Positions 10,625 through 11,892 of a stretch of DNA of 64,000 nt are shown here, piece after piece. The notes beneath the pieces are model-generated. The model was not told the DNA's origin. It made no database searches and worked only from the letters and a program-made list of their open reading frames with translations. The position numbers and the translations under genes were made by a program. This stretch comes from Candidatus Pacearchaeota archaeon (GTDB taxonomy: Archaea > Nanobdellota > Nanobdellia > Pacearchaeales > GW2011-AR1), in NCBI GenBank assembly GCA_050124795.1, contig JASFEO010000002.1, positions 26,797-90,796 on the forward strand, given 5' to 3'. Numbering within the stretch: position 1 is the stretch's first letter; the number at the start of each line of letters is the position of its first letter.

Positions 10625-11892
10625 ATGACAAAATTTAATCCTAGAAAACATGAAGTCTTTGATTTTCTAACTTTTGAATATAGTCAGGATTATCTTGGTT
10701 ATGCAAGAGAAATGGATTTTTCAAAAGAAGAAATCAGTGATTTAGAAAGAGGATTAGAAATGGAGAGAAATGGCTGGGGCTTTTTAGAATTTAAAAATTG
10801 TATAGTTTATCAAGGGAAAAAAAGGGAAATAAAAGACAGAACTTATTTTATTGTAACTCCTGATAAAAAAATTGTCCCAACATCTAAATTAAATAATTCT
10901 AAACTTGTCTTTGGAAATCCTGAATCTATTTTATTAAAAAAAGTTGGAGACTATTTTGGAATTTGTAAAATTCTATTAGATGAAACTGCATTTGAAAGAG
11001 CAGGAAGTTTTTAATTTGTAAATTTATCCTGCGAGACCCCAAAACACGCAAAATTTCAAAATCAGATTTTCGCGACAGAATTATTCATCATGCAATTAAT
11101 AATATCCTTGAACCAATTTTCGAAAAGGTTTTTATTTATAATAATTGCGCAAGCAGGAAAAATAAAGGAACTTTATTTGCATTAAAAAGATTTGAAAAAT
11201 TCAGAAGAAAAATAACAAATAATTTTACATCATATGGTTACTGCATAAAGGCAGACATTAAACATTATTTCGAGGAAGTTAATCACGAAATTTTGCTTGA
11301 AGTCTTGAAAAGAAAAATCAAGTGTGAAAAAACTATTTGGCTGTTCAGACGAGTAATCGAAAGGTCTGAGAGAGCGAACAAGTTCGTGGTAGAAGAGAGT
11401 AATTTTGATTCGTCTCTCTCTCTCTCTCTCTCTCTCTCTTCGTGCGGGCTTGAGAGTAAGACGCGGAGTTCTTCATTAACAGCTAAAGGTATGCCCTTAG
11501 GAAATTTAACTTCGCAATTTTTTGCAAATATTTATCTTAATGAATTAGACAAATTTGTAAAACACAAGTTAAAAGCAAAATATTACATTCGCTATGTTGA
11601 TGACTTTGTAATTTTGCATTCTTCCAAAGAACAATTAAAAATCTGGAAAAAAGAAATTGAGATTTTTCTAAAAAATAGATTAAATCTTGAACTTCATCCT
11701 GATAAATCAAAAATTATAAATTTGTCCAAAGGAATTGATTTTGTCGGATTCAGGAATTTTTATTATTACAAACTTTTGAGAAAAAGAAATATTAGAAATA
11801 TGCAAAAGAAAATTAATTTATTTAATCAGGGAAATATTTCGTATGAAAAATTATTTGAATCCTTTGAAGGTTGGAATGCTTATGCAAAATAG
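10625..11892 (+). CDS. DGR-type reverse transcriptase, reading frame broken by apparent 1-nt frameshift at T5 run 11008-11012
   Basis: Frame-1 ORF 10996-11892 has RT motifs: [36 protein letters not shown] matching the DGR [ILV]GxxxSQ form; YVDD; GIDFVGFR. Frame-2 ORF 10625-11014 has WGFLEFK and AFERAGSF as in DGR RT N-termini. One extra T would give ...AGSFLICKFILRDPK in a single frame. Confidence 0.8.
11413..11438 (+). repeat. (TC)13 dinucleotide microsatellite inside the RT coding sequence
   Basis: 26 nt perfect TC repeat encoding SLSLSLSLS within a 38-aa insertion between RT motifs 2 and 3. Confidence 0.95.

Follow-up and report, generated by a model that had tools for sequence, protein, structure and literature searches.

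How does a reverse transcriptase (RT) come to lie 5.5 kb, and several housekeeping genes, away from the template repeat (TR) of the diversity-generating retroelement (DGR) to which it seems to belong? The question is raised by a locus of Candidatus Pacearchaeota archaeon, in a 64,000-nt stretch of contig JASFEO010000002.1 (assembly GCA_050124795.1, positions 26,797 to 90,796, forward strand) that we call the window; coordinates are window positions unless another locus is named. A preliminary description of this DNA had pictured an intact RT serving, in trans, a distant TR and its variable repeat (VR), without the accessory gene avd. The answer that we favor, and consider probable, is a different one: the locus is a recently disrupted copy of the compact, avd-less, RT-16-type DGR of DPANN archaea, in which the RNA and target module has stayed intact and the sole nearby RT has become a pseudogene-like remnant.

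The RT gene had been placed at 10625–11892. This interval is 1268 nt long, which is no multiple of 3, and it contains two reading frames rather than one open reading frame (ORF), a separate 129-aa gene having been merged with what is left of the RT. The features of this region are as follows:

10625–11014, plus strand: 129-aa gene PVJ67_01155, in frame 1, with its own stop codon (TAA, 11012–11014); the RT remnant abuts its 3′ flank.
11015–11022, plus strand: breakpoint at which the RT remnant joins the native 3′ flank of the 129-aa gene, bracketed by homology to a related locus, L088, up to about 11025 and by RT homology from 11023.
11023–11889, plus strand: DGR-type RT remnant, matching positions 63–322 of a 341-position profile; it lacks the N-terminal 62 residues as well as a usable start codon.
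11414–11439, plus strand: (CT)13 microsatellite, encoding SLSLSLSL, in an insertion of about 30 aa in the loop between RT motifs 3 and 4.
11890–11892, plus strand: premature TAG stop in place of a near-invariant Trp in the alignment of homologs; the JGI and Logan assemblies share this stop.
11893–11940, plus strand: residual RT C-terminal coding sequence past the TAG (SDSYKLKGKLFRAINV); intact homologs align by tblastn across the stop as far as 11934–11940.

The RT-like sequence occupies frame 3, a frame blocked by a TGA at 10993–10995 and open only from 10996. RT homology is first seen at 11023, and the first ATG, GTG or TTG in this frame after 10996 is a TTG at 11293, downstream of the motif A aspartate. 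A profile hidden Markov model (HMM) built from 120 intact homologs matches the window RT at positions 63–322 only. What is missing in front, in alignments to 14 and to 120 homologs as well, is the conserved N-terminal finger region. Intact homologs begin MK..NLY..NLILAWKKARKGKTKK.. for about 62 residues (the pattern of the intact 5′ end being MK..NLY..NLILAWKKARKGK..), and nothing of this is found in the window RT. Because 20 columns of the missing region are conserved at ≥90% among homologs, it is evidently under selection. At the other end, the TAG, which is common to all three assemblies (NCBI, JGI and Logan), cuts off the last ~17 residues. Readthrough or reassignment of TAG was considered and rejected: the same codon closes eight other long ORFs in the window and is therefore a genuine stop in this genome. 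As assembled, the window RT thus reads as a 5′-truncated, start-less, nonsense-bearing gene remnant, from which a functional full-length RT should be untranslatable. Exact look-up of three plausible partial products (289, 141 and 199 aa) found none of them in the protein collection.

The claim that this is the only RT in the window has held up. The profile HMM found no other RT-like or N-terminal fragment in six frames of the window or in the 8.2 kb and 8.4 kb beyond its ends, some 80.7 kb of contiguous genome altogether. A candidate second RT at 48267–48608, a weak tblastn match of one protein (P0004, E 0.014), was discarded; the profile HMM finds nothing there.

In kind, if not in condition, the RT is what it had been taken to be, and its domain is best assigned to the DGR class. 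The frame-3 translation matches Pfam RVT_1 (E 3.3e-26), and its motif 4 region reads GMPLGNLTSQ. Its best match of solved structure is, as the preliminary description had suspected, Brt of Bordetella (8ub7, E 4e-32; 1.3e-16 for LtrA), with residue 9 of the query aligned to Brt residue 65. Identities as a group II intron, retron or DRT/UG enzyme were tried and rejected, all scores lying under the family cut-offs: 126.6 bits against 300 for the group II intron profile TIGR04416, 40 against 235 for retron St85, 63.3 against 200 for Drt3a and 46.9 against 390 for Drt2. The PADLOC matches are generic RT matches. No group II intron RNA was found in 9000–19000 at E up to 1, and motif 4 is LGNLTSQ, not QGxxxSP.

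Might the RT nevertheless work as it stands, on a TR 5.5 kb away, in a naturally dispersed DGR? It lies on the same strand as the TR, it is the only RT nearby, its catalytic motifs 1–7 are intact, including YVDD and LGNLTSQ, and trans architectures do exist in the family. The reading frames already contradict the idea, however: no start codon occurs between 10996 and the TTG past the motif A aspartate, the 62 conserved N-terminal residues are missing where nearly all of the ~80 homologous loci encode the full N-terminus, and the premature TAG removes the C-terminus. We regard a functional RT at this locus as very improbable, and the picture of an intact enzyme serving the TR in trans has to be given up.

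Might the two frames be one gene instead? The interval originally assigned to the RT implies as much. Translation would pass into ...LICKFILRDPKTRK at GTTTTTAA (11007–11014) in either of two ways: by a programmed −1 frameshift, with tRNA-Phe slipping on the T5 run while TAA occupies the A site, or in a T6 allele, if the homopolymer is in error by one base. The product would be an RT of 422 aa whose N-terminal domain is novel. The homologs of the 129-aa protein are standalone, however, 129–131 aa long with the same ...GSF-stop ending; similarity between the 129-aa protein and the RT N-terminus was looked for and not found; the T5 sequence is the same in the NCBI and Logan assemblies; and a fused homolog was observed nowhere else. 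In L088, which has no RT, the 116-aa gene is followed by the 129-aa gene and, after 245 nt, by the M50 protease; the gene end GGAAGTTTTTAA is kept there, and DNA homology to the window reaches 11025. Since RT homology begins at 11023, the RT fragment is joined to what natively follows the 129-aa gene, an arrangement that excludes a frameshift fusion; as a rival explanation, such a fusion is extremely improbable. The 129-aa gene is an independent, conserved native gene, unrelated to the RT.

The (CT)13 run within the remnant is the sole CT/AG run of ≥6 units in the 64 kb. The loop that holds it (window 11368–11462), between motifs 3 and 4, looks like a hotspot where dinucleotide repeats expand; close homologs have ERERER stretches there, encoded by GA repeats. 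If the run changed in length by 2 nt, the RT frame would shift. A stable hairpin in this region was considered and rejected (z-score +2.3, worse than shuffles).

The other half of the element is in far better order. The TR starts 5,541 nt downstream of the RT stop, on the same strand, as had been noticed at the outset, and the module to which it belongs comprises:

16466–17119, plus strand: DGR target gene PVJ67_01205, 217 aa, with a C-terminal VR.
17020–17100, plus strand: VR, at the C-terminal end of the target gene.
17215–17221, plus strand: 5′ strand, UGCCCAG, of a long-range helix enclosing RT-16 and TR, from the minimum free energy (MFE) fold and from complementarity in relatives.
17218–17436, plus strand: RT-16 RNA (Rfam RF03019), immediately ahead of the TR; the whole model (positions 1–158 of 158) is matched with 84.4 bits (gathering score 50) and E 1.5e-12.
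17434–17514, plus strand: TR, AAY-rich in the target's frame.
17515–17539, plus strand: post-TR segment AATAG..CUGGGCA followed by an oligo-T tract, delimited by comparison with 14 canonical loci, by folds and by duplex tests.

TR and VR form an 81-nt pair with 13 mismatches, every one of them at one of the 22 adenines of the TR (hypergeometric 1.3e-9) and at codon position 1 or 2; there are no non-adenine differences, and shuffled sequences are expected to give zero such matches. The TR reads ...NANSDRLNLNCNRNPLNEY in the target frame, and the VR corresponds to codons 185–212 of the 217-codon target ORF. The target protein has no Pfam domain, and an AlphaFold2 model from a 2-sequence alignment has a pLDDT of 35.8, too low for use. 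It is an orphan whose sole other known homolog (P0122, 66% identity) is encoded at L006 1–905, with a divergent VR region; 75 nt after it lies an ORF with a K+-channel signature (TxGYGD). No TR is present in the 230 nt available beyond this homolog, which may be a remote or fossil target.

The RT-16 RNA holds the same position, directly 5′ of the TR, in relatives. The CUGGGCA at 17524–17530 is the 3′ strand of the closing helix and pairs with UGCCCAG at 17215–17221 in the MFE fold. Equivalent helices of different sequence occur in relatives, also where the TR is not beside the RT; ≤5% of shuffles are equally stable in 35 of 44 loci, and the mean duplex energy is −18.9 kcal/mol within loci against −12.2 across them. 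RT-16 stands directly before the TR at every locus checked (window 17215–17539; L001 9807–10055; L015 9531–9811; L082 2880–3165, minus strand; also L055, L060 and L041). Its 5′ edge is predicted to pair with the 7–14 nt just past the TR, and oligo-T comes next. The TR therefore lies inside a closed, apparently self-terminating RNA. In relatives, RT-16 goes with the TR rather than the RT, also at loci where the TR is remote or on the opposite strand; in the window, the nearest RT sequence ends 5.3 kb upstream of it. All this suggests that RT-16 is the RNA scaffold of Avd-independent DGRs. The RNA and target module of the window is complete, and the post-TR segment (AATAG...CUGGGCA...UUUUUU) resembles that of relatives up to the position of their RT ATG, at 17539. 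From 17540 on, the resemblance to the relatives' RT start is lost, and an FKBP gene begins at 17592. The preliminary description had proposed looking for a second RT gene beside the TR; none is there, the FKBP gene following instead.

What an undamaged element of this kind looks like can be read from relatives, for which we collected the surroundings of 80 genomic RT homologs, together with four metagenomic loci that carry two further RTs. The protein collection holds thousands of homologs of the RT, the best of them 333–361 aa long, 66–77% identical and from Nanoarchaeota, Pacearchaeota and Woesearchaeota metagenome-assembled genomes (MAGs). The RT is full length in nearly all of the ~80 homologous loci and aligns from residue 1–8. 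More than 50 loci have an adjacent, adenine-biased TR/VR pair. In the 51 whose TR and RT share a strand, the distance from the TR end to the first ATG of the RT frame ranges from −125 to +86 nt, with 15–35 nt upstream of that ATG the commonest position; where the distance is negative, the ATG counted probably precedes the true start. The related cassettes examined have no accessory gene between target, TR and RT, and avd is found in none of the 51 loci, so its absence is a known trait of the clade and not, as had been supposed, a peculiarity of this locus. Such avd-less elements, termed ‘architecture A’, make up 29% of catalogued DGRs; Avd is defining for the Bordetella-type architecture B, not for A, and avd-less classes are documented (PMC5758913).

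Distance between RT and TR is not in itself foreign to the family. Exceptions to the compact order are L055 and L060, with 1.2–1.3 kb between the two, and L082, with 6.8 kb; in ten loci the RT-16/TR unit is on the opposite strand. Separate transcription units for RT and TR are therefore normal in the family, and what is abnormal in the window is housekeeping genes between RT and TR, combined with a defective RT. At L082 only DGR target genes intervene, and the closing helix and oligo-T are present. The RT of this Woesearchaeota locus (2920–11476) is a 573-aa ORF with a C-terminal extension of about 220 aa, and it faces away from five minus-strand genes, including three VR-bearing targets, beyond which RT-16/TR is located. 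Several other loci with long RTs also have an opposite-strand TR.

By gene order, two islands stand out in the window. Compared with relatives, one at 10039–11932 contains the RT remnant together with the 129-aa gene and orphan ORFs, and another at 16060–17590, between aIF5A and FKBP, contains an RHH ORF, the target, RT-16 and TR; the latter is recognized as an island because aIF5A and FKBP are adjacent in L001. This locus, whose RT is the closest at 72% identity, shares with the window L10, L1, the 116-aa gene, TYW1, the protease, aIF5A, FKBP and FtsZ, and has a compact DGR after FtsZ. In L015 (8340–12395), from a related Nanoarchaeota MAG, a compact target-TR-RT cassette occupies the remnant's own slot, with the 116-aa gene on one side and the M50 protease on the other. 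A few gaps between blocks of conserved genes seem to be used by DGR cassettes repeatedly.

On the reading that we prefer, the parent would have been of a type common in Pacearchaeota and Woesearchaeota: a target gene with a C-terminal VR, then RT-16 RNA, TR and RT. Its RNA and target half would survive between aIF5A and FKBP, ending where the RT start codon belongs, and its RT half would be the piece that lies 5.5 kb upstream in the second island, joined to the 3′ flank of an unrelated gene. The two halves, we infer, derive from a compact cassette or cassettes. The damage would be recent: the remnant deviates in one of 94 columns conserved at ≥95%, which equals the median of intact homologs, and TR and VR show no non-adenine divergence. 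The element is presumed currently inactive. Because the window yields no full-length RT, its VR is most likely frozen in this haplotype, unless an RT supplied from elsewhere acts on it. Contigs that run unbroken through the VR at k=31, and a VR that is identical in the NCBI and Logan assemblies, are soft evidence for low current activity.

Several observations weigh against this reading, and two of them lead to rivals that deserve to be taken seriously. The TR island ends at RT codon 0, but the remnant starts at codon 63, and the 186 nt between are absent from both. One simple break cannot, therefore, explain both halves; at least one rearrangement plus a 186-nt loss is required, or else two cassettes that decayed complementarily. 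The second course makes the halves unrelated fossils that were never partners, the RT remnant coming from a cassette at the slot between the 116-aa gene and TYW1, and the target/RT-16/TR island from another cassette that lost its RT. Cassettes in related genomes do sit in different slots (that of the remnant in L015, after FtsZ in L001), and the closest RT homologs, L001 and L002, have TRs and targets unrelated to the window's. Yet both pieces belong to the same RT-16-type DGR clade, both are barely decayed, and one recent rearrangement with a small loss is easier to accept than two independent decays. A CTGCG pentamer at both breakpoints (11029–11033 and 17540–17544) is only weak evidence for a shared event. 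A pair of unrelated fossils strikes us as somewhat unlikely.

The other serious objection comes from two further assemblies of the same population, Logan SRR11696579 and JGI 3300042731, both of which break at the point where the RT is truncated. A Logan contig (L007) is 100% identical to window 625–11051 and ends at 11051, and the next long one begins at 11466, 26 nt past the (CT)13 run. One JGI contig starts at 11023, and another has the 129-aa gene as its last called gene. A branch in the assembly graph precisely at the homology boundary implies that a second sequence converges at 11022 in the sample; a co-occurring strain, or another copy, with an intact RT 5′ end would be a plausible source. 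The breaks at 11022–11051 and 11465–11466 imply a second, closely related RT, or a length or single-nucleotide polymorphism in the sample. The junction itself is spanned by the Logan contig and therefore exists in the reads.

If so, the window could be one haplotype, or a dead duplicate, in a population in which an intact RT, near-identical from codon 63, still serves RT-16/TR in trans and the DGR remains active. The state of the remnant fits such a reading, since it has no frameshift and keeps nearly every conserved residue over some 290 codons, as would a gene still under selection; so do the pristine TR/VR pair, and the separate RT and RT-16/TR units of relatives. Against it, no intact RT, nor any protein more than 77% identical, is found in a collection of 5.8 billion proteins; the contiguous genome that was searched holds no other RT; and the TAG recurs in every assembly. 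Moreover, no break interrupts the k=31 contigs of Logan and JGI at the TR end or in the VR, so the alternative path does not leave this TR, and coexistence in the sample of this TR followed by an intact RT was on this ground rejected. We judge an active element with its RT elsewhere to be unlikely, though it is the foremost rival. The search for RTs covers the contiguous stretch of the MAG described above, and the uniformity of the VR is that of the assemblies. A TR pattern with N at the adenines (in genome_contigs and viral_contigs), a 37-mer across the RT junction (in metagenome_contigs and viral_contigs) and a motif conserved in the target gene (in metagenome_contigs) all had no match, the source sample evidently lying outside these collections. 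A bolder version of the same idea makes RT-16/TR an autonomous, self-closing, self-terminating RNA gene, able to sit at any place in the genome and served in trans by an intact RT allele or copy, of which the branch at 11022 would be the sign, either as a dispersed DGR or with activity toggled on and off in the population by RT rearrangement, nonsense mutation or microsatellite change. This we think distinctly unlikely.

Work by Paul et al. of 2017 is said to bear, together with PMC5758913, on the closest known system, the avd-less DGRs of the window RT's own clade. These elements of Nanoarchaeota, Pacearchaeota and Woesearchaeota, with RTs of 59–77% identity and a TR within ~90 nt upstream of the RT, share with the window the lack of an accessory gene, a VR at the C-terminus of a small target, and an AAY-rich TR. 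They differ in that the window RT is 5.5 kb from the TR, with housekeeping genes between, is truncated at both ends, and belongs to a cassette split over two islands. The DGR of Bordetella phage BPP-1 (Brt-Avd-TR/Sp RNA; PDB 8ub7 series) is alike in the match to Brt, which extends across motifs 1–7 and the thumb, and in its adenine-specific TR/VR mismatches. Unlike BPP-1, the window has no Avd and its RT has no equivalent of Brt residues 1–64; and whereas BPP-1 has its structured RNA in a 3′ spacer, with Rfam RT-10 between TR and brt (PMC5737381), the window has RT-16 ahead of the TR, paired with the sequence that flanks the TR on the 3′ side.

RT-16 itself is a motif of Weinberg et al. 2017, described only as ‘near RT genes’; a role in DGRs was speculated for some of the RT motifs (PMC5737381). 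The window match is full length and well above the gathering score, with the difference that the motif directly precedes the TR here and in all relatives tested, and in the window has no RT gene nearby. DGRs that act on non-adjacent targets or in trans are represented by the Legionella and Treponema type and by avd-TR-brt placed on a plasmid (PMC5758913). Like the relatives with opposite-strand or distant RT-16/TR units (up to 6.8 kb in L082), they illustrate that DGR components can work when separated. In non-adjacent-target DGRs, however, it is the target that is remote and the TR sits beside an intact RT; in the window it is the TR that is remote, across a gap of housekeeping genes, and the RT that is defective.

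The neighboring genes remain to be described. Of the minus-strand genes reported between RT and TR, the TYW1-like gene, the M50 protease and aIF5A are confirmed, but L40e is not: the 53-aa basic zinc-ribbon ORF at 14681–14842 (minus strand) has only a sub-threshold match to Zn_ribbon_recom in Pfam. The co-oriented run that had been described as a four-gene operon ending in the RT is four small genes plus the RT remnant, instead. None of the small ORFs has an Avd-like Pfam match, in agreement with the preliminary description, nor any match to Avd in NCBIfam or PADLOC, nor any other significant family match.

These small ORFs (116, 82 and 110 aa), together with an RHH protein, had been put forward as candidate accessory genes. 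The 116-aa ORF has orthologs in L001 and L015 (68–72% identity); in L001, where identity is 72%, the DGR is 8 kb off, and the ORF is a syntenic housekeeping-type gene. The 82-, 110- and 129-aa ORFs and the RHH protein have a homolog in none of 87 RT loci. This pattern of occurrence rules out the small ORFs and the RHH protein as conserved partners of the DGR; they are not its accessory genes. The 82- and 110-aa orphan ORFs (window 10028–10616) form an insertion that parts the 116-aa gene from the 129-aa gene; in L088 the two genes are direct neighbors. Paralogy among the three small ORFs was considered and rejected, as BLASTP gave no significant similarity. The RHH-like gene marks the left end of the TR/target island:

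16133–16360, plus strand: RHH-like 75-aa ORF; weak RHH_1/NikR-type matches below cut-off.

It ends in tandem stops, TAG TAA; a GC-rich hairpin (cgcgccaaaggcgcg) comes next, and then an A/T-rich tract (16355–16395). Just upstream of the target's promoter region, this looks like a terminator.

What had looked like an RT far from its TR and lacking avd would accordingly be a broken copy of a common DGR, not a new dispersed architecture, and the correction matters beyond this one locus: surveys that call DGRs by an RT domain and a TR/VR pair within 10–20 kb would count such a locus as active. If we read it correctly, the locus is a natural example of DGR death, in which the RNA and target half can outlive the enzyme without visible decay. 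The most useful leads of the analysis are the association of RT-16 with the TR and the helix that encloses the TR. A scaffold role for RT-16 would offer a way into the question of how cDNA synthesis is primed in these elements without Avd.

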